From the NCBI GenBank assembly GCA_003602645.1, contig QQSI01000017.1:24040-74465 (forward strand): a stretch of 50,426 nucleotides of DNA, written 5' to 3'. The position numbers and the translations under genes were made by a program. The DNA is from Candidatus Poseidoniales archaeon (GTDB lineage Archaea > Thermoplasmatota > Poseidoniia > Poseidoniales > Poseidoniaceae). Below, piece by piece: positions 4,740-46,181 of this stretch. A model generated the notes under the pieces. It did no database searches, was not told the origin of the DNA, and saw only the letters and a list, made by a program, of their open reading frames with translations. Within the stretch, counting starts at the first letter, position 1. Every line of letters starts with the position of its first letter.

Positions 4740-4741
4740 TG

Positions 4742-5059: not shown

Positions 5060-5061
5060 TT

Positions 5062-6213: not shown

Positions 6214-6310
6214 TCTTCAATGCTGTTGCCTGTTCAAAAAAGGAAAAGGAGTTTCTTTCCTCTCCTCAAAGGCCGATGGCATCAAACGGGTCGGATGTTT
6301 GGGGTAGAGC

Positions 6311-6991: not shown

Positions 6992-7029
6992 ACGAGGGGT
7001 TCAAAGACCACTTGATGCACGGTCGGTGC

Positions 7030-14089: not shown

Positions 14090-14139
14090 GGCTCCTCGTG
14101 GTTTGCTTTGTGGTGTAAATATAGCGCCGTCCAATCAAA

Positions 14140-15101: not shown

Positions 15102-15656
15102 CTATTTCCTCCTCTTCCTTTGTCGTAATCCATCGAGAATCATGATTCGTTCAGAAAAAAGACCACCAGAACTTGTCACCATTTGTTGGCAGCGATGAAT
15201 CAGGCGCTCGATCTCCTCGGATTCACCCTGATGACCGTACTTTCGTTCGGCTGCGTTCGCTATGTTGGTCGCTTTGGTCACCATGGTGATCACTTGGTGG
15301 TCGTGATGGATCAAACGCTTGAGATCGGTGTTACTCAAAATCCGTTGACCTGAAAAAAAGGAACGCGAAAGTCCGGATGAGGCTTTTGACACATCTTCAA
15401 TGAAGATGTCAAGGGTGGAGCAGCATCTTTTAGCGGCCATTGCCAATTCGATTCGAGAGGCTGTGGCAGCAGCGTCGTGGAGGTTTGTCATGTGATTACG
15501 AGTTCTGCGAGCAGCCCGAATCAGTTCATTCCTGATCGCTTTATCTGCCGCCCTGCGTTTTCCTTTTGTGTAGCCCTCATACCCTGCCAATACCGCCTGC
15601 AAACCACGAAGGTACGGGAGCGCATCAATCGGAGTGACCACCATGTTCAATACCAT
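15102..15656 (-). CDS. Hypothetical all-helical basic protein (184 aa)
   Basis: ATG start, no TM segment, no family recognised. Its stop lies 2 nt from the SPFH-like gene start, so the two are probably co-translated. Confidence 0.55.
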   Translation of the reverse strand: MVLNMVVTPIDALPYLRGLQAVLAGYEGYTKGKRRAADKAIRNELIRAARRTRNHMTNLHDAAATASRIELAMAAKRCCSTLDIFIEDVSKASSGLSRSFFSGQRILSNTDLKRLIHHDHQVITMVTKATNIANAAERKYGHQGESEEIERLIHRCQQMVTSSGGLFSERIMILDGLRQRKRRK

Positions 15657-32085: not shown

Positions 32086-32105
32086 ACTCGGAAGGGTTCA
32101 ATTTA

Positions 32106-32178
32106 CGCCGATTGTGGGGCTCGAACCCACGACCTTGGGATTAACAGTCCCACGCTCCACCAGCTAAGCTAAATCGGC
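32106..32178 (-). tRNA. tRNA-Asn (anticodon GTT)
   Basis: The reverse complement folds as: acceptor GCCGATT/AATCGGC, anticodon arm TGGGA-CTGTTAA-TCCCA, T-arm GTGGG-TTCGAGC-CCCAC, discriminator G. No encoded CCA. Confidence 0.9.
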
Positions 32179-32200
32179 AACCTTGGCCAATCGCCTCCCC

Positions 32201-32227: not shown

Positions 32228-33547
32228 TCATTCGACGACCTTGATGAGCCGTTGGTTGCCCTCAATTTTTGTCAAGGAGAGGTTCAGGGCGTGGTCAAGG
32301 GCTCTTTTCTGAGAAGGTGAAATTGGCTGGTTATGATGAATCTCACACCAAGCACTCCCACTTTGAAGTTCTCCGCCCTTTGCGGTAAGAAGGACACAAC
32401 CGACCGCAGAATCAATGGTATCTTCAATGTTGAAACGTCCAGCACCGTGTTCACGGAGCACTTCCGCAATCAGCATTGAATCAATGGATTCAACCCAACC
32501 ACCGCTTTTTGATTTGAATACTGTGACATGGCGCGCAGATTCAAGCACTGATTTTGGATCTTCCAACAATTCTGATGCCGCTTGGGGCGTCACACCTTGT
32601 GCGATGCACATGCGTTCAAACCGCTTAGCAGCGGTGCCATTGCTAAGCGACTGACTGATGCGTTGTTCGCCTTCCAATTGAGTTGAGACTAAGCCAAGGA
32701 GTGCCAGGATGGCTCCACCTTGCAAGGCCACAAGGTCGTGTGTGTCCTTTGTCCCCCGTCCATTCAACACCTCGACGCTCTCCAACACCTCGAGCGCATT
32801 GCCAATATGGCTACCAATCGGTTCGTCCATCTCGGTGATCTGGGCGATGGTATTGATGCCCAACCCCTTTGCGGTGTTGACCATTGAACGGGCCAATTCC
32901 GTTGCTTGCTCTTCGGTTTTCATGAATGCAGCTTTGCCGCATTTGACATCAAGCACAAGTGCCTTAAGTCCCTCAGCCGCCTTTTTCGATACGATTGATG
33001 CGGTGATGAGAGGAACGCTGTCGACGGTGTTGCTGACGTCTCGGATGGCGTACAAAAGGCCGTCAGCAGGCGCTATGGCATCATTTTGTGCTGCTATGCA
33101 ACATCCAATTGCATCCACGCAATCCCTCATTTCCGAGGGGGTGAGCTGGCAATTGAATCCGGGGATGGATTCCAATTTGTCAATTGTTCCGCCGGTGTGG
33201 CCAAGCCCACGGCCGGCTAACATGGGCACTTCCACACCACATGCTGCAAGGGCTGGCGCTAGCATCAGCGACATTTTGTCACCGACACCGCCAGTGCTGT
33301 GTTTGTCAGCAATAGGTCGGCCTTTGTCCCAAGTGAGCACAGCACCTGAGTGCATCATGCCCTTGGTGAGCGACACCGTTTCTTTGACTGAAATACCATG
33401 CTTGTGTACGGCTTTGAGCCAGAGGGTGATGGTGTCCACAGGTAATTTTCGTTGAGCGACTGCATCGATGAACGCTGCGAGGTCTTTGGGGTCCATTTCT
33501 CGCCCATGGTCTACGGCGTTGCATAAACGGGATACAAGATCGCTCAT
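32228..33547 (-). CDS. deoA: Thymidine / pyrimidine-nucleoside phosphorylase
   Basis: 439 aa. HSTGGVGDK and AGRGLGHTGGTIDKLE motifs. Its ATG overlaps the stop of the upstream oxygenase gene (ATGA). Confidence 0.9.
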   Translation of the reverse strand: MSDLVSRLCNAVDHGREMDPKDLAAFIDAVAQRKLPVDTITLWLKAVHKHGISVKETVSLTKGMMHSGAVLTWDKGRPIADKHSTGGVGDKMSLMLAPALAACGVEVPMLAGRGLGHTGGTIDKLESIPGFNCQLTPSEMRDCVDAIGCCIAAQNDAIAPADGLLYAIRDVSNTVDSVPLITASIVSKKAAEGLKALVLDVKCGKAAFMKTEEQATELARSMVNTAKGLGINTIAQITEMDEPIGSHIGNALEVLESVEVLNGRGTKDTHDLVALQGGAILALLGLVSTQLEGEQRISQSLSNGTAAKRFERMCIAQGVTPQAASELLEDPKSVLESARHVTVFKSKSGGWVESIDSMLIAEVLREHGAGRFNIEDTIDSAVGCVLLTAKGGELQSGSAWCEIHHNQPISPSQKRALDHALNLSLTKIEGNQRLIKVVE

Positions 33548-34512
33548 GCTTCATCCTCTGGTTCTGCCAGACCAATCTCGACCAAACGTTGATGCAAGTA
33601 GGCACCCGCAGTGATGGATGGATAGAGAGGTTTGCCTCCTGTTTGGGCGATGAATTCCGGGCGAGGCGTCAAATCAATGTCATTGCGAGGATGCACAAAC
33701 ATCGGCATCGAGAATCTCCGACTGGTCGTGTCTTTGGGATTCACCACTCGGTGGGTCGTTGACTGGAACAAACCATTGGTGAGGTTTTGGAGCATGTCAC
33801 CCGAATCGACGATGATATAGCGTGCATCACCTTCCACTTCAATCCAACTTCCATCATGGTCCATCACTTGGAGGCCATCAGCGGTTGCTGTGACAAGCAA
33901 GGTGATTAGATTGATGTCTTCGTGAGCGGCAGATCGAACAGCGCCCGCAGGTGCGTGTTCGCCCACCGGAGGATAGTGTATGATTCGCATGATGGTGTTT
34001 CCTTCTTGGCTCATTTCCCCTAGCCAATGTTCTTGATGGCCCAAGTAAAGGCTGCATGCTCCAAGAATTCGTTGAGCCAGTCCTTCCATTCGATTGAATA
34101 AGTCATCGATCACACCTTTGAATTCGGGTGCATCTGCTTCTGGCCATACGTTGGCTGGGTAGGTTGGTTGTGGTCCTTCACCAGTGTGCGTTCTTCCATT
34201 TTGCCAGAATTCTTTCAGATCAGGTGCATCGTTATCCTTTGCGTGTTCGACACCGAAGGCTGTGTAGCCGCGTTGATGCGAAATTTCTGGCTGTAAATAG
34301 CGTTGTTTGGTGGTCTTTGGTAATGAGAAAAAGACATCACTTTGCTCATAGGATTGTTCAATCAGGTCCAAATCAATCCCGTGATTTTTGAGAGCAAAGA
34401 AACCGATGTCCTTCAGTGAATCTCCAACGGCTTGAACAAAGCGCTCCTGCTGGTGCTTATCTCCAAGTAGATCGGCGAAATCAACCGTTGGTATTCGGCG
34501 GCTCACATTCAT
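33544..34512 (-). CDS. 2-oxoglutarate/Fe(II)-dependent oxygenase (IPNS/DIOX_N-type)
   Basis: N-terminal IPTVDFADL. Fe ligands HED (AAHEDINLITLL) and a distal H (STTHRVVNP). 2OG-binding RFS. Its ATG overlaps the BI-1 stop (TGATG). Confidence 0.85.
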   Translation of the reverse strand: MNVSRRIPTVDFADLLGDKHQQERFVQAVGDSLKDIGFFALKNHGIDLDLIEQSYEQSDVFFSLPKTTKQRYLQPEISHQRGYTAFGVEHAKDNDAPDLKEFWQNGRTHTGEGPQPTYPANVWPEADAPEFKGVIDDLFNRMEGLAQRILGACSLYLGHQEHWLGEMSQEGNTIMRIIHYPPVGEHAPAGAVRSAAHEDINLITLLVTATADGLQVMDHDGSWIEVEGDARYIIVDSGDMLQNLTNGLFQSTTHRVVNPKDTTSRRFSMPMFVHPRNDIDLTPRPEFIAQTGGKPLYPSITAGAYLHQRLVEIGLAEPEDEA

Positions 34513-35258
34513 CACTGATCCCTAATCTTAGAGAGGAGTCTTAGCATTTCGAAGTAGACCCAAATAACGGTGATTAACAATCCGAATGCAGCCCACCATT
34601 CACCAGATTTTGGTGAGTTGTTGCTGATACCGCGCTCAATAAAGTGAAAGTCGAGGATCAGATTGAGTGATGCAACACCAAGAATGAACAAAGTCAACAG
34701 AATACCCAGAGGTCCCGAGGAATGGAGGAAGGGTACGCCTAAATTTGTGAACAGCGACAGAACGATTGACACCATGTACATGGCGAACACGCCGATCGTG
34801 AGGGTGATGACGACGGCTTGGAATGCAGGTGTCGCTTTAATGATTTTAGTTGACCAAAGGAAATACATGACGCCGATGATACAGACTGTGCCTAAGCCAG
34901 CCTGCAAGACAATTCCGGAATATGCTCCTTCATACACAAACGATACTCCACCAATGAGCATACCTTCAAACAAGGCGTAACAGATCGCCCCTGGTGCTGG
35001 ATTTTTTGGCCTCGCAAAAATCATCACCAATGCGGTGATGAGACCACCCACGAATCCAATTCCCGAGAGAAGGGCCATTGCCAAAAGGTTTCCAGATGCG
35101 CCTAAAGAAACGGTCACTAGGGCAGTAAGGATTGTGATGCCAAACAGAACGCCAATCTTCTGCATTGTCCCTTCATAGGACATGGTTTCGTAGCCGGGGA
35201 TGTTGCTCCAAAAATTGTTGGACAACACTGGGTTGCTCGTCGAGGTGACTGCTCGCAT
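34512..35258 (-). CDS. Bax inhibitor-1/YccA-family membrane protein
   Basis: N-terminus MRAVTSTSNPVLS is typical of the BaxI_1 family. 6-7 TM helices and a charged C-terminus LRLLSKIRDQ. ATG at 35258; the track start 35288 is TTG. Confidence 0.75.
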   Translation of the reverse strand: MRAVTSTSNPVLSNNFWSNIPGYETMSYEGTMQKIGVLFGITILTALVTVSLGASGNLLAMALLSGIGFVGGLITALVMIFARPKNPAPGAICYALFEGMLIGGVSFVYEGAYSGIVLQAGLGTVCIIGVMYFLWSTKIIKATPAFQAVVITLTIGVFAMYMVSIVLSLFTNLGVPFLHSSGPLGILLTLFILGVASLNLILDFHFIERGISNNSPKSGEWWAAFGLLITVIWVYFEMLRLLSKIRDQ

Positions 35259-35284
35259 GGCGTGAAATGCCAAGAGGTCCCTTG

Positions 35285-38200
35285 TCAATCTTGTGACGTT
35301 TCAGCATGTGCATTGACTTGTTCTTGGTAGTACACTTGCAACTGGTCCATCGACCATCCTTGGTCCAAGTAGGTGCGAACCATTGCCTCGTCCCAGCCAG
35401 GAACCCTTGCGAGATCGGCTTGAGTGACTTCAACTGCCGTTGCATCATCTGTCGAGCCGCTGCCGTCGAGGACTGGAGTTTGCCATCCGTCGGTCGAAAC
35501 CGGTTCAGCAGCGAGGGCGTCGTGCTGTGCCGCATTCAGAGTGATCAAATCCTTTGTTTCTTCAGCTTCCTGTTCGATTGAACGAAGGATTTTGAAGGCA
35601 CCAAAAGCCAGGATTACACCAGCAAGCATGAGCATGAGCATCAAATTTGAGCCCAGATTCGTTTCATCGCTGGCACTTGGTGTGGACTTGGCCAATCGCT
35701 GTTCTGTCGAGCAGCCTTCGACGTTCACCGACAAACCAGCGTCTGTGTTTGGACAGGTATCATCGGCGTTGATGACTCCATCAGCATCATCGTCGAGAGA
35801 GCCATTGTCCACTGGAGTGGTTGTGCCACTCGCATCATCAATGCCCCCGAGGTCGCACCCAAGAACTTCTGATTCATTGACGCCATCGTTGTCGGCATCT
35901 GCAAGCAACAGGGCATCTCCGGGGTAGACATCTGCTATGGTCGGGTCGAGCGCTGTTGACTGAGCCCATGCGACTTCAGTGCCATCAGGGATACAATCTC
36001 CGTCGGTATCTGCGTTGGTTGGGTGGCTGCCAAGGTCGTATTCCAATTCGTTCGAGAGTCCGTCACCATCAGCATCGTACAAGCCCTCCATCATGTTCGG
36101 TCCAGGGAGTGTTCTTGTGGTTCGGTTGAGGCCATTCGCCACTTCCCAAATATCAGGCAATCCGTCTTGATCTGTGTCCGTGACATTATCGAGGCGGTTC
36201 CAATCATCGAACCATGCCATTCGGAACGGTGCAGCAACTTCTGCAGAGGTGAGCACTACGCCCATCTCTCGGTTGCGGTTGACCGCAGAGTTGCCCCAGT
36301 TGATTGATGAAATCAGGACGGTTTCCTGGTCGATGATGAGGCCCTTGTTGTGCAGCTTAGACACATCATCATCTTCACCCATAACGACCGCTGCAACATC
36401 AAGACCATCGCTTGAGTTCCATACTTCGTTGAAGGTGTCCACAACGTCTTGTATATCCTGGTCCAAGTAGGCGCCATTGATGATCAAACGAACGGATACG
36501 CCATCTTCGGCTGATTGACGAAGAGCAGTGAATATTGGATTGTCTCCCCAGCCCCACGACCAGTCCATGTCTAGGTATTGTAAGGACAAGAGCAATTCAT
36601 CCTCTGCACTTCCAATCAATTCAACCAACCCTTCGATGCAGTTGTCCGGGCAGGTGAGCAGTTCTCCATTCACGGTTGCAGTGATGGGGGATGCACGGTC
36701 GCCGTCAACCGGGGTTGCCGCCGGCATGTTCCAACCATTTGGCTCGTCTGAAGCGGATGCAGGTGTGATGTGCTGTCGCAATGGTTCCTCATCGAAGGCC
36801 ATTTGTTGAAGAACGATGGTTGCAAGTTCGACGTTTTCGATCAATGCACCCCAGTCCATGTTTCCACGGACTCCTGGTGCAGGCATTGAGGAGTTTTTCC
36901 AATTTCCTGAGGAAATCCAAACGCTGGTTCCGTCGCGAACGGCTACCTTGCTGTGAATGTAAGCATAAGGCTCGTCGCCCCCATCACCGAACCAGTATGT
37001 GGTGACACCAGCCTTGACAAGTTCACTCGCGATGCCGTATTGGTTGATCATGTCAAAGTTTGACCAGAAGCCTTGAGACCCTGCATCAAGCACCACAGTG
37101 ACATCGACGCCACGGTTCTGTGCGTCGATTAATGCCTGAGCCAACCGCGGTTCTGAGAGTTGGTACACATGGACATTGAGGCTGGTTGTCGCCCCTTCAA
37201 TCCAATCGAGGACGTCAAGCAGACCATCGGTTGGGCCAATCAAAGGCGTGACGATGGATTCTCCAGAGAAATCTTGGTCCTCACAGAAGGTGCTTCCGCC
37301 AAGGCGTCCCCAGCGCTCGTGCCAGTCAACAACTTGGTCGGTGTCATCAAGCAATCCGCATCCATCACCGCGGTGATAGATGATGAGGTCGATGCCCGTT
37401 GTAGGCTCGACCAAACTGATGCCACTCCAACCCTGGACATCGACCGGACCGTTGCCGTATACGATGGTATCGGCAAGGGCTCCAGATGGGCCCATCACAT
37501 GGAGTGCTGCTCCGTCATTCGGAAGCGTTGGTGGATCTGTGAAGGCTGATGCGAACCCTTGGATCATGCCATCCTCGTAGACACTGAGGCCGTTTGGATC
37601 AGCGGCAAAAATAACTGCACTTCCAGCAGGTATGGTGATGTCTGCGAAGGTGAAATCATCAGTGCCACCTGATGTAACTACGCTGAACGTCCACCCGTCA
37701 AGATAAGCGGTGTTCTCGCCCATATTGCTCAGTTCAAAGAATTCAGTGTTTGAGGAAATACTGGTCTTACCTTCGCTCATCAAGCGGGTAAACTTGATGT
37801 CATTAATTTGTGCGAATTGCGAAGCATTTGGCTCTTCTGCTCCCGGACTTGGCCACATTGTGTGCACCCAAGAAGCCGCAGCGTCCGCACCAGGCATCAT
37901 GGTTTGACAATCGCTGACAATGCTCCACTGCACTGTTTCAATCGGGACTCCATCAGGGTTGGAAAGAGTAAACGAATCTCCGAGACCAGTCAGCATGGAT
38001 TTATCCATCAAGAACACAGCGCGTGCTCCAGGCTGGACAAGTGTTGCGTCCCACCCTTCAGTGGCGTTCCACATTGAATCGGCTCGAATGAACCGTCGAT
38101 CTTGATCTATGGTATCAATTCGCCAGCGACTAAGGTTGAGCACATCATCGCCCGTGTTTTTGAATTCAATCCAGTCTTCAAGCGGTTCAATTGAATCATC

Positions 38201-40213
38201 ATCGCAAGAGGCAAGAACTTCAGTAACAATGACGCTTTCTGACTCGGTGTAGACGGGCCAAACTGGGTTGATTTTCCCGGGGCTGACCCAAGCAGAAAGC
38301 AACCACTCTGCACCAGTTCCTGCGCTCGTCCCGTTAGGGCCAGCGCCAGCATGGGTGCTGTTTGGTGCGATGAGGGATTCACCTTCAACAGTGGAAGACC
38401 AGCCGATAGTGTCCATCACCGCACCAGTGGCGTCCACTAATCCAATCGAGTCGGGTGTGGTGTGCTTGAGGTAGAAACTGCTGGTTCCGTTGAGGGCAAT
38501 TAAAGCGACCCCGCCGGGTTGAATCACCGATGTCGATTGAAGTGGCATGTTATACTGGTGCAGGGTTAATGTTCTGCTTGCAGCCTGAAGTTTCCAGCCT
38601 CCAACATCGATGGCTTGGTCGCCTTCATTCTTGAGTTCCAACCATTCGCCAAGAGGCCATGGTTGAGAATCGCTGCCGATGCCATCTGGCATGACTTCTG
38701 AAAAGAAGACATTACCTGTGTTGTCCATTGCGCCGGGCTCAGGTTGACCAGGCGTCATCCACGGTGATGGTACCCACGGGTCCGTTGGATTTTCTGCTGG
38801 AATAAGCGAAACATTTCCTCCGTAATCAGTGGCGTACCAAGCAGCGTCAACGATGCTTCCTGTTGCATCTGCAAGCATGAGATGATTGTAAAAATTCCAT
38901 AGTTCTGTCCCCGTGGTAAATTGAACAATTCTTCGGCCATCTGCTTCAATGATGGCGCCAGCTTGCGTGTCATTGCTGACGAGCGTTGCTGGGTCCAATA
39001 AGGTTACATTGCCCATGCCGTCGATGATGGACCAGCCACTCAAATCGATGTCAGTTGGACCATCATTGAACAGTTCTAACCATTCTCCATCTGGGAATGG
39101 TGTTCCATCTGCGGAACTGTTTGAAAGCAATTCTGTCATTTTTAGAGGCGAAGTGGCCGTCACAATCTGGTCGAGTTGAGGTGGGTTCGGTGCGTTTGGC
39201 GTTGGGTATGCAGCGTAGACCATGTAGGTCGAAGATTGGTCGTTGACCAGTGAGAATCCTGGTTCGTTATCGGTCCATGCGACCTGTTCAGAGATGCTCC
39301 CATTGGGCCATTTTAGGTCGAGGGCTTCGACTCCATTATTGAGCATGCTTGATCCTGAACCGTTGACTGCAATGATGCGGGTGCTGCCGGGAGCAATCAT
39401 GTAGCCCGTGCTTGTTGCGTCGACGAGGTGTGATTCATTGAACAACAGCACCTTACCAGCTTGGTCTTGAATGCTCCAACCGGTGAGGTCGATATCGGAT
39501 GAACCAGTGTTGATGACTTCGACCCATTCGCCACCGGGCCACATGTCACCGTCAAAACTTGGCCAAGCATCAGCCATCACTTCGTTGATGTGGAGGTCGG
39601 ATGGGACAATAGTGGGCCCTCCTGTGCCGCTCCCAGTGTTGATTCCACCGGGTGTGGGGTTGTTTGTCGAAACCCAATCGTTGGTTGCACCAGTGGCATC
39701 CTCTTCGAAGCTTACACCGGACGGTGCTCCACTGCTGGAGAAGGTCCACGTTGCTTGGTCAATGTTGACTCCAGATGCGGTGTGCAAGGTCAGGATGTCG
39801 TTGGTGTTGGCAAGATAGAACATGCTGTTGGAAAGTCCGTTGCGTGAGATGACCATGTATTCACCGGGGGAAAGTTCCCATGAAGCAGAATTGTTGGCAT
39901 CGTAATCAACAATTGTGGTGGAGTTGAAGTAGAGCGTTTTGGATGCTTTATTTGTGGCGTACCAACCGAGAACATCAACGGTTGTGTTCCCGCTGTTGAA
40001 CACTTCAAACCACTCGCCGCCCGGCCATGCTGCATCGTCATATCCATTGGGGTTTGGCAAGGCTTCGTTGAGGCAGATGTCACCTGAGCAGGCTGTCGAA
40101 CGAGCCGATGTCATCACCGGGGTTTGGTCATCAAGGTCAATGGTGACAACGGTTCCAACCGTGGAAAAAACCAACAGAAGCGCGAGCAGGACGGGGCGGA
40201 GTTTAGAGATCAT
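35285..40213 (-). CDS. Giant surface protein (1642 aa): signal peptide, 6 lamin-tail domains, dual-HKD phospholipase-D/nuclease-superfamily domain, TSP3-like Ca-binding repeats, TM anchor, cytoplasmic tail
   Basis: AGGTGA SD 5 nt before the ATG. Six repeats of the LTD signature (xNEvl...GEW[FVL]E[VL]xN...D[LV]xGW). HKD1 YIHSKVAVRD...ISSGNW and HKD2 KLHNKGLIID...ISSINW. DxDxDG repeats. TM LMLMLMLAGVILAFGAFKIL. Confidence 0.9.
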   Translation of the reverse strand: MISKLRPVLLALLLVFSTVGTVVTIDLDDQTPVMTSARSTACSGDICLNEALPNPNGYDDAAWPGGEWFEVFNSGNTTVDVLGWYATNKASKTLYFNSTTIVDYDANNSASWELSPGEYMVISRNGLSNSMFYLANTNDILTLHTASGVNIDQATWTFSSSGAPSGVSFEEDATGATNDWVSTNNPTPGGINTGSGTGGPTIVPSDLHINEVMADAWPSFDGDMWPGGEWVEVINTGSSDIDLTGWSIQDQAGKVLLFNESHLVDATSTGYMIAPGSTRIIAVNGSGSSMLNNGVEALDLKWPNGSISEQVAWTDNEPGFSLVNDQSSTYMVYAAYPTPNAPNPPQLDQIVTATSPLKMTELLSNSSADGTPFPDGEWLELFNDGPTDIDLSGWSIIDGMGNVTLLDPATLVSNDTQAGAIIEADGRRIVQFTTGTELWNFYNHLMLADATGSIVDAAWYATDYGGNVSLIPAENPTDPWVPSPWMTPGQPEPGAMDNTGNVFFSEVMPDGIGSDSQPWPLGEWLELKNEGDQAIDVGGWKLQAASRTLTLHQYNMPLQSTSVIQPGGVALIALNGTSSFYLKHTTPDSIGLVDATGAVMDTIGWSSTVEGESLIAPNSTHAGAGPNGTSAGTGAEWLLSAWVSPGKINPVWPVYTESESVIVTEVLASCDDDSIEPLEDWIEFKNTGDDVLNLSRWRIDTIDQDRRFIRADSMWNATEGWDATLVQPGARAVFLMDKSMLTGLGDSFTLSNPDGVPIETVQWSIVSDCQTMMPGADAAASWVHTMWPSPGAEEPNASQFAQINDIKFTRLMSEGKTSISSNTEFFELSNMGENTAYLDGWTFSVVTSGGTDDFTFADITIPAGSAVIFAADPNGLSVYEDGMIQGFASAFTDPPTLPNDGAALHVMGPSGALADTIVYGNGPVDVQGWSGISLVEPTTGIDLIIYHRGDGCGLLDDTDQVVDWHERWGRLGGSTFCEDQDFSGESIVTPLIGPTDGLLDVLDWIEGATTSLNVHVYQLSEPRLAQALIDAQNRGVDVTVVLDAGSQGFWSNFDMINQYGIASELVKAGVTTYWFGDGGDEPYAYIHSKVAVRDGTSVWISSGNWKNSSMPAPGVRGNMDWGALIENVELATIVLQQMAFDEEPLRQHITPASASDEPNGWNMPAATPVDGDRASPITATVNGELLTCPDNCIEGLVELIGSAEDELLLSLQYLDMDWSWGWGDNPIFTALRQSAEDGVSVRLIINGAYLDQDIQDVVDTFNEVWNSSDGLDVAAVVMGEDDDVSKLHNKGLIIDQETVLISSINWGNSAVNRNREMGVVLTSAEVAAPFRMAWFDDWNRLDNVTDTDQDGLPDIWEVANGLNRTTRTLPGPNMMEGLYDADGDGLSNELEYDLGSHPTNADTDGDCIPDGTEVAWAQSTALDPTIADVYPGDALLLADADNDGVNESEVLGCDLGGIDDASGTTTPVDNGSLDDDADGVINADDTCPNTDAGLSVNVEGCSTEQRLAKSTPSASDETNLGSNLMLMLMLAGVILAFGAFKILRSIEQEAEETKDLITLNAAQHDALAAEPVSTDGWQTPVLDGSGSTDDATAVEVTQADLARVPGWDEAMVRTYLDQGWSMDQLQVYYQEQVNAHAETSQD
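35744..36184 (-). repeat. Thrombospondin type-3-like Ca-binding repeats (DxDxDGxxDxxE)
   Basis: DTDQDGLPDIWE, DADGDGLSNELE, DTDGDCIPDGTE, DADNDGVNESE, DDDADGVINADDTCP. Confidence 0.75.
36329..36955 (-). other. Two HxKxxxxD (HKD) catalytic motifs of the PLD superfamily
   Basis: HKD1 HSKVAVRD is encoded at 36932-36955 (His1087). HKD2 HNKGLIID is encoded at 36329-36352 (His1288). Each is followed by IS[SG][IG]NW. Confidence 0.8.
37409..40078 (-). repeat. Array of six diverged lamin-tail-domain (LTD) coding repeats
   Basis: Approximate modules at 39704-40078, 39239-39595, 38774-39145, 38369-38710, 37844-38233 and 37409-37801. Their core motifs are GGEWFEVFNSG, GGEWVEVINTG, DGEWLELFNDG, LGEWLELKNEG, EDWIEFKNTG and TEFFELSNMG. 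Confidence 0.75.
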
Positions 40214-40292
40214 AGACTCACCTATACCCCGACGTGATGGTCAAAGGGCATAGGGCTTGTGCCTGCGAACCATGGTGGATTTTGCCAGCAGT

Positions 40293-41804
40293 TCACAGGA
40301 ATCCTGCGTTGTCAACGAGGTTCTTGAACATCAAAATCATAATCGGAACGAGAATTACGCCCATGGCGTGACTTCGTCGAATGCCAAGGCGAGGTGGTAA
40401 CAATCCAATCATCGTTCCAACAATCAAGACTGACAAGCCAATGAAACCGGTGCTGACGAAGACTAAGGCTCCGACGAACAAAATGACGCTCATGATCATC
40501 TGCTGGAGGGGGATTGCTGCGTGAAGCCGGAGCATTCCCTGGCCAACATAGCGCATTATTGGCATGGACATAAGACCGGCTGCGAGGGTGATCGCCAGAA
40601 GGCGGATGAAGTCAGCAGTCGGCTCGAGGTTGCTCCATGTGTCAACAGGGTACATCGCTTTGAGCGCCAAAGTTGCACCTGAGCGTGAGCGACTAATGAT
40701 GTACAAGAAACCTAGGACGCAGACCGTGACTGCCGTGTTGACCGCAGAAAGAATAGCAATGATTTCCAAATCCTGTTTGGTCTGAGGCCCTTCAACACCA
40801 TCCTCGGATTCTGCTTTTGCAATCTCGAGAAGTTCATCATCGCTCATTTCGGTCAGTCGGCGAGTTTCCCAATCCATTCCATAGCCGGCTTTTCCTTGTA
40901 CTTTCGCAACAACGTTTCGCCCCCCCATCACCAACACGGTGGCTTGGGATGCAGTCATTCCGGGAAGCACGCCCATGGATGCACCTGCCACACCAGACCA
41001 AAAGCAAGGTACGAGGAGTGGCTTTGCAGGCGGTAAATCCCAGTTTTCTTTTTGAGGGGGTAGGTGAGATGTTGTGGCGTAAATATCGAGTAAATTTGCG
41101 ATGCCAAACAGTCCGGCGAGGCCTGGCAGCAACAGACTGGCCCCGGGCATGTTGATCGGCGAACTTGCAGGGAGAGCGGTCGGGCCAATGATGGTCCATC
41201 CAAACAATCCCGCAAGAAGGAAAAATGCAGTTGCAGTGAAAAATCCGGCAAATCGTGAATCAGTACTAAACATCCCACCTGTCAAAGTTTGCAACCACAT
41301 CGGCCAATCAAGCCGGGTGGTTTCAGTGGCCAGCAGCAAGGCAGAAATCACCAAGAGAATGAAGGGAAGCATGGTTCGAAGGGAATCATACCAACCCAAT
41401 TCAGGGCCAAAGGCGATTCGAGCGAGAACAATCAACGGCAAGGAGAGGAACAGACCGAGTTGGGAGCCACGAGCTGACCACGCAACCCCACGAGCAGCGT
41501 TGCCTGAGAGCAGCATGCGGTGGCCCGGCAATAACGACAGGGCTTGGTCCGCATCCGGTGCCCCCATGAGCGCTGATGGGATGTAATTGAGGAACGTGTG
41601 CACTGTTCCTGTCGATACAATGATTCCAGCAACGGCGGAAAGTGGGATGCCCAATGCCAACAAACTTGGTGACAACGCTAACAGAATCAACGCCACATTG
41701 TTGACGTGGAACCCGGGAATGATGCCCGTTAAGGAGCCCATGAACACTCCAAAGAACAGAGCGAAGAGCATCCACCCAAGTTCGTAAAAATAAGCGTCCA
41801 ACAT
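40293..41804 (-). CDS. TctA-family (DUF112) transporter large-subunit-like permease
   Basis: 503 aa, about 12 TM. The N-terminal G-rich helix GVFMGSLTGIIPGFHV and a second-half duplicate GVAGASMGVLPGMT are characteristic of TctA. GAGGTGG SD lies inside the upstream gene end. No tctB or tctC is nearby. Confidence 0.7.
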   Translation of the reverse strand: MLDAYFYELGWMLFALFFGVFMGSLTGIIPGFHVNNVALILLALSPSLLALGIPLSAVAGIIVSTGTVHTFLNYIPSALMGAPDADQALSLLPGHRMLLSGNAARGVAWSARGSQLGLFLSLPLIVLARIAFGPELGWYDSLRTMLPFILLVISALLLATETTRLDWPMWLQTLTGGMFSTDSRFAGFFTATAFFLLAGLFGWTIIGPTALPASSPINMPGASLLLPGLAGLFGIANLLDIYATTSHLPPQKENWDLPPAKPLLVPCFWSGVAGASMGVLPGMTASQATVLVMGGRNVVAKVQGKAGYGMDWETRRLTEMSDDELLEIAKAESEDGVEGPQTKQDLEIIAILSAVNTAVTVCVLGFLYIISRSRSGATLALKAMYPVDTWSNLEPTADFIRLLAITLAAGLMSMPIMRYVGQGMLRLHAAIPLQQMIMSVILFVGALVFVSTGFIGLSVLIVGTMIGLLPPRLGIRRSHAMGVILVPIMILMFKNLVDNAGFL

Positions 41805-41813
41805 TGTTCCACC

Positions 41814-43613
41814 TCACGAGTTAGGGTTGCTGTCTTGCTCCAATTCTGAGCGATCGTCTTCGCCATCCCCGTCGGTGTCTGGGTTGTTGACGTTCATGCC
41901 ATTGGCGCTCTCAAGAGAGTCCGCCACTCGATCACCATCGCTGTCCAATGCGTCAGCACCGTCGAGGGTGTAGACCAGGGACACTTCGTTCGGGTGTTCG
42001 ACCTGACGCAACCGTCCTGACCATGTCATTGAGATGTTTGAGTGGAGGTCATCGGTGCCAATTGGATTGAGGTCGAGGTTGAGTCGAAGGGATTGTGAAG
42101 ATCCATCCCTGTAGAGGAACCAGCCGTCGTCTTCTTGCACGGCTTTTCCGTTGATCAATACATGCGTGTTTTTGGCGTACCCCCACTGAGTGGCGCCGTC
42201 GTCCCAAAGCAGGCTTTGAGGAGCAGGTGGTTCACCCACAAGTTGGTAATTTTGAACCATGAGGCGCATCATCATCTTTTCATCGTCCCATGAAACGGTG
42301 ACGTTGGCAATGAGTCCTTGACCGGATTCAATCCAGTTGGTCCGCGTCGACGGGAACGACATGGCAACTCGCGTTTGGCCAAAAGTGTAGGTCTGGCTAT
42401 CGACAAAATACCCATCGGTGTCCAGTGGTTCAAAGGCGTACTGCATGAAGGTACTGAGTGTGTAGACTTTGTTTGGCGTCTCAAGCATAGAGGCTGGGTT
42501 CGCCGAGAGCATGGCTTGCATGGACATTGCAGTCATGGGGTCGATGAGGTTGGTGCCATTGCCGTTGTTTGCATCGATGCACCACATGCTGCGGTCATCG
42601 TTCCACATCAACCGTCCCGTGGCTTCGTATGCAGAGCCGTTGTATCCATTGGTTTCAGCGTTAGAAATGTCTTCATCGGTTGGTAGGATGCAAATCATGT
42701 TGCCGTTTGGTCCAAAGAGGGTCCACTGATCGTTATTGATTAGGACCGTTCCTGCCATTGAGACCATGCTTCCTGATTCGTAACTCCATGTCGATTCACC
42801 AGCCCATTCAAGTTGGTTAGGTTGGGGTGTATAACCATCGACAAGAATAATTTCAGGCCCCTGAGTCAAAAACGCCCATCGGAGATTGGTTTCTTGGTAA
42901 CTGAGCATACCGGTCACTTCGACTTTGGAATCGGCTTCGATCCACACGCCAGGTGCTGATTGGATGAGCAACTGAAGTTGATGCGCAGCGTTTCCTGGAT
43001 GGTCGGTGATGTAGGCGGAGGTGTAAATTGCATCCTTATTGATCGCTTCGCTGATGAATCCTGTAATGGTGACAATCTCTCCCGAATAGACTTCTGGCTC
43101 AACGGCTAGATCGCTCAGAGTAAGGCGTTGGACTTCTGGTAAACCTGATGACTCCCACCAAATGGCGCCGGCCCCGGTTGATTGAAGGTAGAATCGTCCG
43201 TTGTAATCGACCACGGCCCCCATCACGGTGACGTTGGTACCTATCGGAGGTTTCTCTCCAGTTGAATACCAGCGAACGCTGATGACTCCAGTGTCGTCCT
43301 CAACAACCAAGTCAACTCGGTCTTCACCGCTGCCATACCGGTCCTCAATCCATGAAATGACGGTACCTTCGACCAGAACAGTCTCGCGGTTGTGGTTGAC
43401 CAAATCTTCAACCAAAACCACCTGTGGTTCCCTGACCATGGCGTACCAGTTGAGCGATGCCACCAAGAAAACAGCAAGTGCAAACATCACCCAAAGTTTC
43501 TGACCACGGGTCGCTGGATCATCGTCGGTAATTTTGAGCATGATGTCCTTGAGAGCATCGGCCATGGTGTGGTCAACCCAACTCCAGCCATAGCCGTTTG
43601 CACGGGGGAGCAT
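41814..43613 (-). CDS. N-terminally membrane-anchored protein with three OB-fold-like modules, a beta-rich domain and C-terminal TSP3-like repeats
   Basis: TM KLWVMFALAVFLVASLNWYAMV. OB-like pattern VLVEGTVISWIE...DLVVEDDTGVISVRW...GTNVTVMGAVVDYNGRFYLQ, plus two weaker copies. C-terminus DSDGDRVADS...NPDTDGDGEDDRSE. Confidence 0.65.
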   Translation of the reverse strand: MLPRANGYGWSWVDHTMADALKDIMLKITDDDPATRGQKLWVMFALAVFLVASLNWYAMVREPQVVLVEDLVNHNRETVLVEGTVISWIEDRYGSGEDRVDLVVEDDTGVISVRWYSTGEKPPIGTNVTVMGAVVDYNGRFYLQSTGAGAIWWESSGLPEVQRLTLSDLAVEPEVYSGEIVTITGFISEAINKDAIYTSAYITDHPGNAAHQLQLLIQSAPGVWIEADSKVEVTGMLSYQETNLRWAFLTQGPEIILVDGYTPQPNQLEWAGESTWSYESGSMVSMAGTVLINNDQWTLFGPNGNMICILPTDEDISNAETNGYNGSAYEATGRLMWNDDRSMWCIDANNGNGTNLIDPMTAMSMQAMLSANPASMLETPNKVYTLSTFMQYAFEPLDTDGYFVDSQTYTFGQTRVAMSFPSTRTNWIESGQGLIANVTVSWDDEKMMMRLMVQNYQLVGEPPAPQSLLWDDGATQWGYAKNTHVLINGKAVQEDDGWFLYRDGSSQSLRLNLDLNPIGTDDLHSNISMTWSGRLRQVEHPNEVSLVYTLDGADALDSDGDRVADSLESANGMNVNNPDTDGDGEDDRSELEQDSNPNS

Positions 43614-43647
43614 CGTGACATTCTCCCGAAATGAGCCATTTTTGCGG

Positions 43648-43672
43648 GGTCCACTTTTTTAATGCGTGGACC
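43648..43672. promoter_or_regulatory. Perfect 7-bp inverted repeat flanking a T6AA box in the divergent intergenic region (candidate bidirectional promoter/operator)
   Basis: ggtccac-ttttttaatgc-gtggacc. It lies between the OB-fold gene (ATG 43613, minus strand) and the HD gene (ATG 43689, plus strand). Confidence 0.4.
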
Positions 43673-43688
43673 GAGGGGGTGGTTGGGG

Positions 43689-44990
43689 ATGGCGATGAGG
43701 GACCGCGTGATTCGTGATGAAATTCACAAAGATATCTTGGTGCCTGCCCGCCATGCAACCATCATCGACACTAAGGAATTCCAACGTCTTCGAAACATCC
43801 AGCAACTTTCAACATGTGAATATGTTTTTCCTGCTGCAAACCACAACCGCTTCGCTCATTCCCTCGGAGCCTACCATTTGGCTGGGCAACTCACTGCTTC
43901 TCTCCAAGAGGTTCAACCGGGGATTCTCAGCGATGAAGACGCAGAATTGGTTCAATTAGCAGCCCTGCTCCATGACATTGGCCACCCACCTTTCTCCCAT
44001 GTTTTGGAAACGCCGGATGTCTACGCAACATACCATTCTCACGAACATTGGGGCCGTGTGTTGTTGGAATCAAGTGACACAGAGGTCGGCGCAGCAGTTA
44101 CCAATGTGCTCGGCGAGGCTCGAACTGAACGGCTGTTCGCCCTCATGGACGGTGCATCGGAGCATGCAGGTGAAGCAATTCCCCCGTTCATGAAAGAAAT
44201 TGTATCAAGCCAACTGGACGTCGATCGGATGGATTACATGGTCCGTGATCAAGCGAACACAGGCGCGCAAATTGGTGGTTTTGACATCGCCCGAGTTCTG
44301 CGTGCTCTTCGTGTGGGCGATGACGGGCATTTCTTCGTCAAATCGTGGGGTCTTCCCGCCATTGAAGCTTATCTGGTGACGCGATACCACATGTATCACC
44401 AAGTGTACTTTCACAAGGTCAACATGTTGACCCAGAATTACCTCGTGAAGATGCTCTCGAGGGCCCGTGCATTGGCTGAACAAGGGGAACTCACTCTTTC
44501 TTTGGCCCTGCAAAAAATGCTGCTCGACAAAAACTTAGACGCCCAAGGCTATGCAAGTCTGAATGATGCACACATTCGTGTCGCCATTCCCGAATGGGCA
44601 GAACATGAAGACGAAATTCTCTCAAATTATGCCATGAAGATGATGTCGAGGCGAGGTTTTCACAAGTCCCTTCGCATTGAAGGCCTCACCACGGAAATGG
44701 TGGGTGTTGTCCGAGATCGAATCGAAGCGGAGGTGGCGGAGGCTGGTTACGATCCTGCTTCTGAGGTGATTTATGCTCGGATTTCTAAGAAAGGGTACAA
44801 GCCATACGCCCAAGGCATTCGAATTGAGGATGGCGGAGATGCTTCAGAACATTCTCCCCTCATTCGCTCGCTCACTCAACCAAATGAACGCGCCTTGATT
44901 TTCGTTCCAGAGGCAATACGGGACGGGCTTGAACAACGCGTTCGTGAATGGATCAAACCCTCCCAATCATCGCTTGTTCATTTCGAGTGA
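43689..44990 (+). CDS. HD-domain phosphohydrolase (COG1078, SAMHD1/dNTP triphosphohydrolase-like)
   Basis: RVIRDEIHKDI, RFAHSLGAYHLA, LLHDIGHPPFSH, DVDRMDYMVRD. ATG at 43689 or 43695 lies ~30 nt downstream of an A/T box. The track start 43662 sits inside that box. Confidence 0.85.
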   Translation: MAMRDRVIRDEIHKDILVPARHATIIDTKEFQRLRNIQQLSTCEYVFPAANHNRFAHSLGAYHLAGQLTASLQEVQPGILSDEDAELVQLAALLHDIGHPPFSHVLETPDVYATYHSHEHWGRVLLESSDTEVGAAVTNVLGEARTERLFALMDGASEHAGEAIPPFMKEIVSSQLDVDRMDYMVRDQANTGAQIGGFDIARVLRALRVGDDGHFFVKSWGLPAIEAYLVTRYHMYHQVYFHKVNMLTQNYLVKMLSRARALAEQGELTLSLALQKMLLDKNLDAQGYASLNDAHIRVAIPEWAEHEDEILSNYAMKMMSRRGFHKSLRIEGLTTEMVGVVRDRIEAEVAEAGYDPASEVIYARISKKGYKPYAQGIRIEDGGDASEHSPLIRSLTQPNERALIFVPEAIRDGLEQRVREWIKPSQSSLVHFE

Positions 44991-45031: not shown

Positions 45032-45105
45032 GGGCCTGTAGCTTAGTCGGTTAGAGCGCCCGGCTCATAACCGGGAGGCCAGGGGTTCAACTCCCTTCGG
45101 GCCCA
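45032..45105 (+). tRNA. tRNA with CAU anticodon (elongator Met, or Ile2 if C34 is modified)
   Basis: Acceptor GGGCCTG/CGGGCCC (one G-U pair), anticodon arm CCCGG-CTCATAA-CCGGG, T-arm AGGGG-TTCAACT-CCCTT, discriminator A. The G1-C72 pair argues against an initiator tRNA. Confidence 0.85.
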
Positions 45106-45120
45106 CCTTGAAATTGGCTG

Positions 45121-45145: not shown

Positions 45146-45257
45146 ATCTCGGATATTGGAGAAAAATAATTTCCCCTTTCAAGAGGATTTCTTTCCCATT
45201 TTATCACAACGGTTATGAGTGTCGCATCAGTGGCGTTGTCTGTTAGGTGAAGTTAGT

Positions 45258-46181
45258 ATGATGAAGCGTGCCGTGTTCATTCTTGCCCTTTATGTCGGTT
45301 CCTTGATGTTGGTCGCAGTACCAGCAGCAGCACAAGCCCCTACTGCGGCTATTTCATTATCCTGTGCTCCAATCTCCATTAACGTGGAAGTGAAGCCCGG
45401 TTCTACCTACTCAGGATTCACCACTTGCACTGCAAGCAACCCAACCACCTATCAAGAAAAAATCAGCATTCTGGTGACGAGCGATGGCCTTGCGACGGCA
45501 TCACCCGGTGACATGTACATCGGTGGAAATCAAGAAGTGGACTTCCAAATTTCTGTTCGGGCTACACCTTACTTGACCATGCAAAGCCGAACATTGTCCG
45601 TTTCTGCAACCGTCCAAGAAATCAACAGTTTGCCGCCGGTCAACACGGCTTCCTCGCAGAACAACATGATCGTCAACATCATGCAGTATTCTCTGGTTCA
45701 GGTGGAAGCAGTTGAGCCATTCGTTCAACTCATGCCAAAGAAGGACAAGAACTTCGAATTCAAGGTCTATAACCTCGGCAATCAAATTGACTTCATGAAG
45801 GTCGGTGTGACCGATGCGAGCCGAGATGACCTCGAACAGGCAGGATTCACCATCAACTTGCCAGCAGTGAAGGTCCAAATCGACGCCATCCCAACAGCAA
45901 CAAACGTCCGAGTGATGGCACGAACACCGAAAACACAAGGCTGGAGCGATGCTTACCACGTGCTTGACTTCTACGCTGAATCGGAATTCGCCTGCAACAA
46001 CGGCGGTTGTATCCGTGAGTCACAGATGATCACTGTCTATGTCCGTGGTGTCTATCTCCCAGGTTTCGAAGTTATTCCAGCTCTTTCCATGCTCGCTCTT
46101 GCAGCAGCAGTTGTCGGCCGCCGTATGACCGGTAGCGAAGACGAAGAAGGGGAATGGCGTGAAGCCGCTCCCGGTCTGTGA
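45258..46181 (+). CDS. Secreted two-Ig-like-domain protein with a PGF-CTERM-like anchor followed by an acidic tail
   Basis: GGTGA SD 8 nt before the ATG at 45258. Signal MMKRAVFILALYVGSLMLVAVPAAAQA. C-terminus LPGFEVIPALSMLALAAAVVGRR plus a 19-aa acidic extension. Confidence 0.75.
   Translation: MMKRAVFILALYVGSLMLVAVPAAAQAPTAAISLSCAPISINVEVKPGSTYSGFTTCTASNPTTYQEKISILVTSDGLATASPGDMYIGGNQEVDFQISVRATPYLTMQSRTLSVSATVQEINSLPPVNTASSQNNMIVNIMQYSLVQVEAVEPFVQLMPKKDKNFEFKVYNLGNQIDFMKVGVTDASRDDLEQAGFTINLPAVKVQIDAIPTATNVRVMARTPKTQGWSDAYHVLDFYAESEFACNNGGCIRESQMITVYVRGVYLPGFEVIPALSMLALAAAVVGRRMTGSEDEEGEWREAAPGL
46059..46124 (+). other. PGF-CTERM-like sorting signal (PGF, hydrophobic helix, RR)
   Basis: Encodes PGFEVIPALSMLALAAAVVGRR. 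The canonical signal would end here, but the ORF continues for another 19 codons. Confidence 0.55.

Follow-up and report, generated by a model that had tools for sequence, protein, structure and literature searches.

A candidate apparatus for DNA uptake linked to thymidine catabolism in Marine Group II archaea

The transfer of DNA across the archaeal membrane is an open question, and a gene cluster from a marine archaeon may bear on it. To my knowledge, archaea lack ComEC, an OB-fold/TctA-like gene pair of Methanococcus provides the sole genetic candidates for archaeal DNA transport, and no other gene pair has so far been proven necessary for DNA uptake in archaea. The cluster considered here lies in a stretch of 50,426 nucleotides (nt), hereafter the window, whose named homologues place its host in Candidatus Poseidoniaceae (Marine Group IIa, MGIIa). 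It consists of six co-directional open reading frames (ORFs) on the minus strand, spanning 32228-43613 (from first to last: 41814-43613, 40293-41804, 35285-40213, 34512-35288, 33544-34515, and 32228-33547). The first two encode a membrane-anchored protein with an array of OB folds and a TctA-like membrane protein, the third a giant surface protein with LTD and PLD-superfamily domains (LTD/PLD), and the remaining three a BI-1/YccA-type membrane protein, a 2-oxoglutarate (2OG)-Fe(II) oxygenase, and a thymidine phosphorylase. Is the first pair involved in DNA uptake, as an equivalent pair is in Methanococcus, and do the genes that follow it take part in the same process?

The answer I favor, with a probability of about 0.55, is that the cluster encodes an envelope apparatus that captures, processes, and imports extracellular DNA, coupled to the cytoplasmic catabolism of pyrimidine deoxynucleosides. 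A first-pass annotation, made by a model from the letters of the sequence, had arrived at a related scheme, in which DNA is captured and cleaved outside the cell, the small products are imported by the TctA-like permease, and pyrimidines are salvaged. Its names for the products of genes two through six, and for that of a divergent HD phosphohydrolase gene, agree with the profile searches described below.

The OB-Fold Protein and Its TctA-like Partner

The product of the first gene is 583 amino acids (aa) long when read from a conserved ATG (41814..43565, minus strand, within the ORF that extends to 43613). Although 43613 had initially been taken as the start, 43565 is most likely the true one, because the 599-aa ORF shows no coding conservation over its first 16 codons (where homologues have in-frame stops) and all homologues align from Met17. 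Judged from hydropathy, an AlphaFold2 model, and structural comparison by Foldseek, the protein begins with a short, highly conserved cytoplasmic N-terminus, followed by its single hydrophobic segment, one transmembrane (TM) helix (43434-43490), then probably five extracellular OB-like beta-barrel modules, and finally an Asp-rich, TSP3-type calcium-binding tail at the C-terminus.

Taken alone, the protein from the window has no significant match in Pfam (PF01336, E = 0.15). All 12 homologues tested match PF01336 weakly (best E-value 1.1e-5), and the same 12 of 12 weakly match DUF4131 (best 3.6e-4) over the region that comprises the TM helix and the first OB module. DUF4131 is the TM-plus-OB domain of ComEC (PMC5031224). 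A first AlphaFold model, made with 12 close homologues, reached a predicted local distance difference test score (pLDDT) of 45, and one rebuilt with 37 sequences from MGIIa and Marine Group IIb (MGIIb) reached 75.4. The rebuilt model consists of an N-terminal helix, the TM helix, and five successive five-strand beta modules, two of which have a helix between strands 3 and 4, the classical OB topology. Its matches by Foldseek in the PDB are solely multi-OB nucleic-acid binders, with E-values of 6e-12 to 1e-5: HIN-200 on double-stranded DNA, RPA70, CTC1, Teb1, baculovirus LEF-3, RADX, TEBP-alpha, and Pyrococcus RPA. By these matches and those to PF01336, the modules belong to the nucleic-acid-binding structural class and not to some other fold. 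The first-pass annotation was thus right to see OB folds here, but in place of the three it counted the model has five.

The second gene (40293..41804, minus strand) encodes a polytopic membrane protein of 503 aa, with at least 11 hydrophobic segments and a match to the TctA family (PF01970, 2.3e-40; 139 bits, cutoff 28.9); NCBIfam gives no match for this protein, nor for the BI-1 or oxygenase proteins. It is the best conserved gene of the cluster, with 78-97% identity across MGIIa and 51-53% in MGIIb. The usual partners of TctA, TctB and TctC (PF07331 and PF03401), do not occur among the scanned genes, as the first reading of the sequence had it; the scan covered about 11.8-50.4 kb of the window except for the ORFs at 13331-14134 and 15102-15656, the first 11.8 kb lying outside it.

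The precedent for this pair comes from Fonseca et al. (2023; PMC10133366), who used a transposon screen for transformation-defective mutants of Methanococcus maripaludis JJ and arrived at two adjacent genes, MMJJ_13020, encoding a single-TM OB-fold protein, and MMJJ_13030, encoding a TctA-like protein. Natural transformation is lost when either gene is deleted in frame, complementation in trans restores it in each case, and transformation with plasmid DNA needs both genes. A TctA-like homologue is also required for transformation in Methanoculleus thermophilus, and the M. maripaludis screen turned up a secreted thermonuclease as well. They put forward the TctA-like protein as the missing DNA transporter of archaea (PMC10133366). 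A literature search found no follow-up or later mechanistic work on this result.

The pair in the window resembles MMJJ_13020/13030 in being adjacent and co-directional and in having the same order, a single-TM OB protein and then a TctA-like protein without TctB or TctC. A nuclease-type gene is present in the Marine Group II (MGII) cluster, and a secreted nuclease is implicated in the same process in Methanococcus. There are differences too. The OB protein of MGII is much larger (583 aa, with about five modules and the calcium-binding tail), the nuclease-type gene lies within the cluster and encodes the LTD/PLD surface protein, whereas that of Methanococcus is a thermonuclease, and the MGII pair is linked to thymidine phosphorylase. 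Because M. maripaludis cannot be transformed without an adjacent pair built in the same way, the permease is more likely a DNA translocator, or a part of one, and DNA a more likely cargo than the small cleavage products assigned to it by the first-pass annotation.

That earlier scheme deserves a hearing nonetheless. Worked out in full, it would have DNA completely digested outside the cell, the TctA-like protein importing small anionic or neutral products (nucleotides, nucleosides, or phosphate esters) with the OB protein replacing TctC as its binding subunit, and no polymer crossing the membrane. Proteins of the TctA family (PF01970) are indeed secondary transporters of small organic anions, the cluster contains no recombination or pilus genes, and the thymidine phosphorylase, together with a PhoX fusion found in MGIIb (see below), points to full breakdown into nucleosides. 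It is also the case that canonical tripartite tricarboxylate transporters (TTT) need an extracytoplasmic binding protein, which archaea do not have (PMC10133366). The scheme fails to account for the genetics, however: a small-molecule importer would not explain a transformation phenotype, since both genes of the equivalent pair are essential with plasmid DNA (PMC10133366). Furthermore, some five RPA-like OB folds suit a polymer and not a mononucleotide, and the protein is strongly diverged from canonical TctA, to the point that no canonical plasmid-borne tctA is matched at E = 1e-3. I consider it quite unlikely that import is confined to small products.

The pair is not peculiar to Poseidoniales. 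An exhaustive search with the TctA-like protein gave 1364 representative clusters, with identities of 31-39% outside MGII. Each of the 115 Poseidoniales loci with sufficient sequence ahead of the TctA gene has an OB gene immediately before it, and outside Poseidoniales the same is true of seven of nine contexts (one has no OB gene and one could not be judged). In a Thermoplasmata contig, a 314-aa single-TM protein with three OB modules (PF01336 1.4e-10, DUF4131 2.4e-5) ends 1 nt before TctA, and two metagenomic archaeal contigs encode single-TM OB proteins, of 447 aa and 239 aa, upstream of TctA. The smallest version, a mini-OB protein of 112-117 aa, abuts TctA in two contigs (L143, 4655-6203; L144, 4661-6197) of a DPANN-dominated group with TctA proteins of about 400 aa. 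Beside these two pairs lie genes for DNA polymerase D subunits, Hef/XPF, and LigT. A profile search of the ~400-aa homologues and cluster look-ups of 20 representatives gave only archaeal proteins from metagenome-assembled genomes (Woesearchaeota, Nanoarchaeota, Aenigmarchaeota, Hydrothermarchaeales, and Thermoplasmata), with no Methanococcus entry among them.

The pair crosses into bacteria on two cyanobacterial plasmids, one of Cylindrospermopsis curvispora (NZ_CP060823, locus 3204-7382) and one of Pseudanabaena. In both, the protein encoded upstream of TctA matches PF01336 with 41-44 bits, above the Pfam cutoff, and one of the two is annotated as OB-fold nucleic acid binding. When the TctA-like protein was compared with 72,556 plasmids, these two OB-linked TctA genes were the sole matches, even at E = 1e-3. 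The order on the Cylindrospermopsis plasmid is OB, TctA, and then a NERD nuclease-related gene, which suggests an independent convergence on linkage to a nuclease. The first two genes of the cluster are therefore a widely conserved two-gene module, found in Thermoplasmata, DPANN archaea, and cyanobacteria.

The LTD/PLD Surface Protein

The third gene (35285..40213, minus strand) encodes a type-I surface protein of 1642 aa, made up, according to Pfam and hydropathy, of a signal or N-terminal hydrophobic segment, six lamin-tail domains (LTDs; six stretches, 5.4e-69), a dual-HKD domain (PLDc_2 in two stretches, 2.5e-34), calcium-binding repeats of the TSP3 type, and, toward the C-terminus, a TM anchor at 35588-35644 with a cytoplasmic tail of about 100 aa behind it. 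The catalytic domain occupies residues 970-1350 (36164..37306, minus strand) and is of the Nuc type by its motifs and by comparison of its profile with the PDB. The motif HxKx4D...GxN occurs in it twice, as HSKVAVRD (36932-36955; H1087/K1089/D1094) and HNKGLIID (36329-36352; H1288/K1290/D1295), and is invariant in 10 sequences of MGIIa and MGIIb that share 42-90% identity. The domain is thus a fused pseudo-dimer, with the two halves in one chain. No Pfam match to an EEP (PF03372) or SNase domain was found in the protein, whose catalytic domain is PLDc_2.

The PLD superfamily includes many lipid enzymes, and it might be supposed that this is one of them. When the profile of the HKD domain was compared with all PDB sequences, the nucleases came first: Nuc (3.1e-15), Zucchini/MitoPLD (2e-13), and NucT (1.4e-10). 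There followed a 391-aa "phospholipase" (5e-10), polyphosphate kinase (1e-4), PssA (9e-4), and PLD1 and PLD3 (both 4e-3), so that the nuclease matches are some ten orders of magnitude better than those to lipid PLDs. NCBIfam gives the same ranking for the whole protein, with DrmC at 1.2e-24 and NucT at 3.7e-11 against 1.1e-4 for cardiolipin synthase. In these profile comparisons the domain thus falls nearest to Nuc, NucT, and Zucchini, all of them nucleases, and not to lipid PLDs or cardiolipin synthase, which agrees with the nuclease role originally suggested for it. It shares with those three the HxKx4D...GxN motifs and finds in them its best profile matches among solved structures. They differ from it in being small (about 155-200 aa), with one HKD motif per chain, and in working as homodimers, whereas here both HKD motifs are part of an anchored 1642-aa protein with six LTDs.

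These results bear on a second alternative, that the locus scavenges organic phosphoesters or phospholipids. The HKD domain would then cleave phospholipids or other phosphodiesters of particles or prey membranes, the OB protein would bind non-nucleic polyanions or glycans, the TctA-like protein would import organic acids, and the presence of thymidine phosphorylase would be coincidental. Besides the lipid enzymes of the superfamily, one may cite in its favor the proposal that LTDs target proteins to membranes (PMC6085458), a weakly CD36-like insertion in the MGIIb loci, the PhoX fusion, which fits generic scavenging of phosphorus, and the capacity of OB folds to bind oligosaccharides and heme (CcmE is among the weak matches). 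But the HKD profile resembles nucleases, the OB modules match nucleic-acid-binding families (PF01336 and PF13742) and DNA-binding structures, thymidine phosphorylase is kept in both MGII families, and the Methanococcus genetics point to DNA (PMC10133366). I judge scavenging of this kind to be decidedly improbable.

Bacteria offer a closer comparison. The occurrence of LTDs in ExeM-type extracellular nucleases, mentioned in the first-pass annotation, is confirmed by the literature: ExeM combines LTD and OB modules with a nuclease domain and needs the LTD for full activity in vitro (PMC6085458). In the "DNA-degradation loci" of Izemoplasmatales, an LTD-nuclease protein is encoded beside transporters (PMC8289736). 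The cluster shares with ExeM, NucH, Xds, and the Izemoplasmatales loci the combination of LTD, OB-type modules, and nuclease on surface or secreted proteins, with transporters and phosphatases alongside for the use of extracellular DNA (PMC6085458, PMC8289736). It differs in that the nuclease has a dual-HKD PLD fold and not an EEP or thermonuclease fold, a second protein, in the membrane, carries the OB modules, a TctA-like transporter takes the place of an ABC one, and the host is an archaeon.

Conservation and Setting of the Cluster

Direct reading of the gene junctions upheld the six minus-strand genes and every spacing given for them by the first-pass annotation. From the stop codon of the OB gene (41814-41816) to the ATG of the TctA-like gene at 41804 there are 9 nt, and GAGGTGG, at the Shine-Dalgarno sequence that the first-pass annotation had placed inside the upstream gene, overlaps that stop codon. 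A spacer of 79 nt, containing AGGTGA, separates the TctA-like gene from the LTD/PLD ATG at 40213, and 26 nt separate the LTD/PLD gene from the BI-1 ATG at 35258. The last two junctions are overlaps, TGATG at 34512 between the BI-1 and 2OG oxygenase genes and ATGA at 33544-33547 between the oxygenase and thymidine phosphorylase genes. The overlaps and short gaps suggest coupling of the cluster genes. About 40 nt upstream of the LTD/PLD ATG, the 79-nt spacer (40214-40292) contains a noncoding motif, ...TATGCCCTT(T/A)GACC... (that is, ...AAG(C/T)nnTATGCCCTT(T/A)GACC...), which is kept across several genera of MGIIa even though the rest of the spacer around it varies. The motif is a candidate internal promoter or regulatory site and, if a promoter, the LTD/PLD gene may be transcribed separately.

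To assess conservation, the window's proteins were mapped by tblastn onto 130 Poseidoniales loci, with counts restricted to loci with enough sequence to judge. Loci with a TctA at least 75% identical to that of the window constitute the MGIIa group, and those of MGIIb (Thalassarchaeaceae) have TctA at 51-53% and OB protein at about 32% identity, the assignment resting on named homologues. The gene order of the cluster is no accident, for it recurs in 60 of 60 Poseidoniaceae loci long enough to judge, and a core of it also in the sister family Thalassarchaeaceae. Within MGIIa every gene is present in all loci so judged: OB (80/80), LTD/PLD (61/61), thymidine phosphorylase, BI-1, and 2OG oxygenase (60/60 each), and HD (70/70). 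In MGIIb the OB gene is found in 20 of 20 loci and the LTD/PLD and thymidine phosphorylase genes in 13 of 15 each, in contrast to BI-1 and 2OG oxygenase (both 0/15) and HD (0/17). The conserved core is OB-TctA-LTD/PLD-thymidine phosphorylase, and BI-1, oxygenase, and HD occur only in MGIIa. What persists of the six-gene system first proposed is thus the linkage of four genes, without the other two or the divergent HD gene.

The MGIIb loci add features of their own. In one of them (L113), the start of the thymidine phosphorylase gene overlaps the stop of a gene for a 1026-aa protein with two LTDs and two PLDc_2 stretches. In another (L117, 12613-17196), a single 1527-aa protein combines two LTDs, a PhoX alkaline phosphatase (1.3e-29), and two PLDc_2 stretches, and three more loci (L118, L135, and L137) appear similar by tblastn position. 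The PhoX fusion would supply a step, the dephosphorylation of nucleotides to nucleosides, that was absent from the scheme of the first-pass annotation. Between TctA and LTD/PLD, MGIIb also has a gene for a protein of 889-926 aa (9686-12376 in L113, 9735-12515 in L117, and 9734-12403 in L115) with a weak N-terminal match to CD36 (PF01130, 1e-9; LIMP-2, 0.09), a lipid-handling family. Members of this scavenger-receptor family are, so far as I know, rarely reported in archaea. A gene of the window (47608-50355) whose product is of similar size and topology was considered as its counterpart and rejected, the two not being homologous.

Do the genes behind the pair belong with it at all? It may be argued that only the OB and TctA proteins cooperate and that the rest are independent, held in place by the stable gene order of streamlined Poseidoniales genomes. 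Indeed, genes that flank the cluster (a GMP synthase subunit gene and the genes beginning at 45219 and 46252) are as syntenic as the cluster itself across 48 species representatives, so that within MGIIa the six-gene order alone says little. I rejected it as sufficient evidence of function, relying instead on MGIIb and on contexts outside Poseidoniales. These too provide some comfort to the argument for independence: BI-1, oxygenase, and HD are absent from MGIIb; two MGIIb loci (L115 and L122) have OB, TctA, and the CD36-like gene with no LTD/PLD or thymidine phosphorylase gene nearby; and the OB-TctA pair occurs far beyond this locus without nuclease or thymidine phosphorylase, beside genes as unrelated as those for gas vesicles, PolD, and AlaRS. 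The possible promoter in the 79-nt spacer fits as well. On the other side, the start/stop overlaps and gaps of 9-26 nt favor translational coupling, and in MGIIb the thymidine phosphorylase gene, after loss of the genes in between, did not drift away but overlaps LTD/PLD. Another nuclease-related gene (NERD) follows OB-TctA in a cyanobacterium, and the predicted functions make one coherent chain. Independence of the later genes seems to me unlikely.

Of the remaining members of the cluster, the last gene (32228..33547, minus strand) scores above the curated NCBIfam cutoffs for a thymidine/pyrimidine-nucleoside phosphorylase (NF004490, 428 bits, cutoff 269; TIGR02644, 420.8, cutoff 409.05), with all three domains of that enzyme, Glycos_trans_3N, Glycos_transf_3, and PYNP_C, present in Pfam. 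No literature on this enzyme in Poseidoniales was found. The 2OG-Fe(II) oxygenase (33544..34512, minus strand; DIOX_N 1.5e-27 and 2OG-FeII_Oxy 1.5e-18) is specific to MGIIa. Its nearest solved structures, 3oox (8e-57) and 3on7 (2.4e-40), are both of unknown function, and its best characterized match is fungal thymine-7-hydroxylase (T7H; 5c3p, 6e-31), ahead of IPNS, ACC oxidase, and plant dioxygenases. A thymine-oxidizing role beside thymidine phosphorylase is attractive but only a lead. The seven-TM protein of the BI-1/YccA type (34512..35258, minus strand; BaxI_1 6.3e-62), also specific to MGIIa, has no evident role in the cluster. In one MGIIa sublineage (L042-L046, L078, and L081), about 430 nt (e.g., 19120-19551 in L045) lie between the BI-1 and oxygenase genes, which in the window overlap by 1 nt. 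The added sequence points to a small gene inserted there or to a promoter of its own for the downstream part.

Divergent from the cluster is the gene (43662..44990, plus strand) for a protein like the SAMHD1/EF1143-type HD deoxynucleoside triphosphate (dNTP) triphosphohydrolases, correctly recognized from the start: it has Pfam domains HD and HD_assoc_2, and its nearest solved relatives are the dNTPase EF1143 (2o6i, 3.5e-45) and SAMHD1 (~1e-27). The control region between it and the OB gene (43566..43661) was examined in an alignment of 13 loci. A conserved TTAAAAA box abuts the HD start codon. The inverted repeat that the first-pass annotation had given for the divergent region was sought in 43540-43700 and not found. 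About 28 nt upstream of the OB ATG, and overlapped by the 16-codon extension of the ORF (43566-43613), is a conserved noncoding motif, GCAAnGnCTAwG. This motif may act like a TATA element, giving a transcript with a short leader or none.

The cluster is bracketed by tRNA genes, tRNA-Asn(GTT) (32105-32179, minus strand), 48 nt downstream of thymidine phosphorylase and on the same strand, and tRNA-Met(CAT) (45032-45107, plus strand), just past the HD gene. Next comes a gene (45219..46181, plus strand) for a surface protein of 320 aa with no match in Pfam. Its ectodomain, rich in beta structure, follows a signal or TM segment, and its C-terminus (LPGFEV, TM segment, GRR) reads like a PGF-CTERM archaeosortase signal. 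It accompanies OB-TctA in 64 of 64 MGIIa loci, in 8 of 9 loci of the group with TctA 60-75% identical, and in 15 of 15 of MGIIb. An archaeosortase-family gene was also among the matches of the Methanococcus transformation screen (PMC10133366). Nothing unusual or related to the cluster stands out among the other flanking genes, which encode the glycine cleavage system, PurE, the GMP synthase subunit, UDG, a binding-protein-dependent ABC transporter by a ThiN gene, and TSP3-repeat surface proteins.

A Possible Path for Extracellular DNA

Built on the observed gene order, domain identities, fold class, conserved catalytic motifs, and linkage across lineages, the path that I propose for DNA would run as follows. 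The LTD array and calcium-binding repeats of the giant anchored protein would hold DNA at the cell surface, where the Nuc-type dual-HKD domain would cut it. The string of RPA-like OB folds, just outside the membrane, would bind the single-stranded or fragmented product and pass it to the TctA-like protein, which would be the translocator or an essential part of it. Once imported, the DNA would be recombined or degraded, with thymidine phosphorylase releasing thymine and deoxyribose-1-phosphate. In MGIIa, the oxygenase resembling thymine hydroxylase and the HD dNTPase-like enzyme may process bases and nucleotides further. The activities, the substrate, and co-transcription are all inferred here, and uptake would serve nutrition, recombination, or both.

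The logic is that of ComEC/Rec2, in which an extracytoplasmic OB fold by a TM anchor, a polytopic membrane protein, and a nuclease are likewise combined, and the TM-plus-OB region of the archaeal protein weakly but consistently matches DUF4131, the OB domain of ComEC. The components are nonetheless unrelated. Pfam finds no Competence (PF03772) or metallo-beta-lactamase (Lactamase_B) domain in any protein of the cluster, the membrane part is of the TctA family, the nuclease is of the PLD family and on a separate protein, and there are three polypeptides in place of one. With TctABC, on the other hand, the cluster has only the TctA membrane component (PF01970) in common, differing from it by the lack of TctB and TctC, the OB-fold partner, and the strong divergence already noted.

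Against uptake of DNA by this path stand, besides the syntenic flanks, the two MGIIb loci that lack LTD/PLD and thymidine phosphorylase, the CD36-like insertion from a lipid-handling family, and the possible separate transcription of LTD/PLD, several considerations of a more general kind. The substrate of a PLD-superfamily enzyme is not readable from its sequence. The match of the window's first two genes to the architecture of MMJJ_13020/13030 is one of shared Pfam families, topology, and gene order and not of aligned sequence, and the Methanococcus phenotype, which might arise indirectly, is no proof that the TctA-like protein is the channel. Outside Poseidoniales, OB-TctA pairs mostly lack a nuclease gene beside them, and no type IV pilus genes were found in the window. 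Finally, the LTD of ExeM, needed in vitro, is dispensable for extracellular DNA degradation (PMC6085458).

Two parts of this picture were already known, the genetically defined OB/TctA-like pair and, from bacteria, LTD-nuclease loci for DNA degradation. The first-pass annotation regarded the whole combination as undescribed, which does not hold for the pair (PMC10133366). What does appear new is its physical coupling, throughout an order of planktonic archaea that are abundant worldwide, to a dual-HKD LTD enzyme, which in some loci also contains PhoX, and to thymidine phosphorylase. The presence of the pair in cyanobacteria, once with a NERD gene behind it, and in DPANN archaea also appears new. 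Literature on extracellular DNA and nucleases in Marine Group II yielded nothing on this locus. A broader reading, which I put forward tentatively and hold with distinctly less conviction than the local one, is that the OB-array/TctA-like pair is a ComEC-independent DNA importer that spans domains (Euryarchaeota, Thermoplasmatota, DPANN, and some cyanobacteria) and that in Poseidoniales has been hard-wired to thymidine catabolism and to a giant surface nuclease, in some cases fused to PhoX, for the routine import and consumption of dissolved DNA. If that is true, the pair would be the long-sought archaeal DNA transporter, and the cluster would represent an unrecognized sink for marine extracellular DNA.

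Dissolved DNA is a large oceanic pool of phosphorus, nitrogen, and carbon, and few archaea in surface waters of the ocean are as abundant as the Poseidoniales. The locus adds independent comparative evidence that the OB/TctA-like pair handles nucleic acid. Should the proposal prove right, Marine Group II archaea would consume dissolved DNA, and the OB/TctA-like module could be used to recognize competence or DNA foraging from the genomes of archaea and some bacteria.

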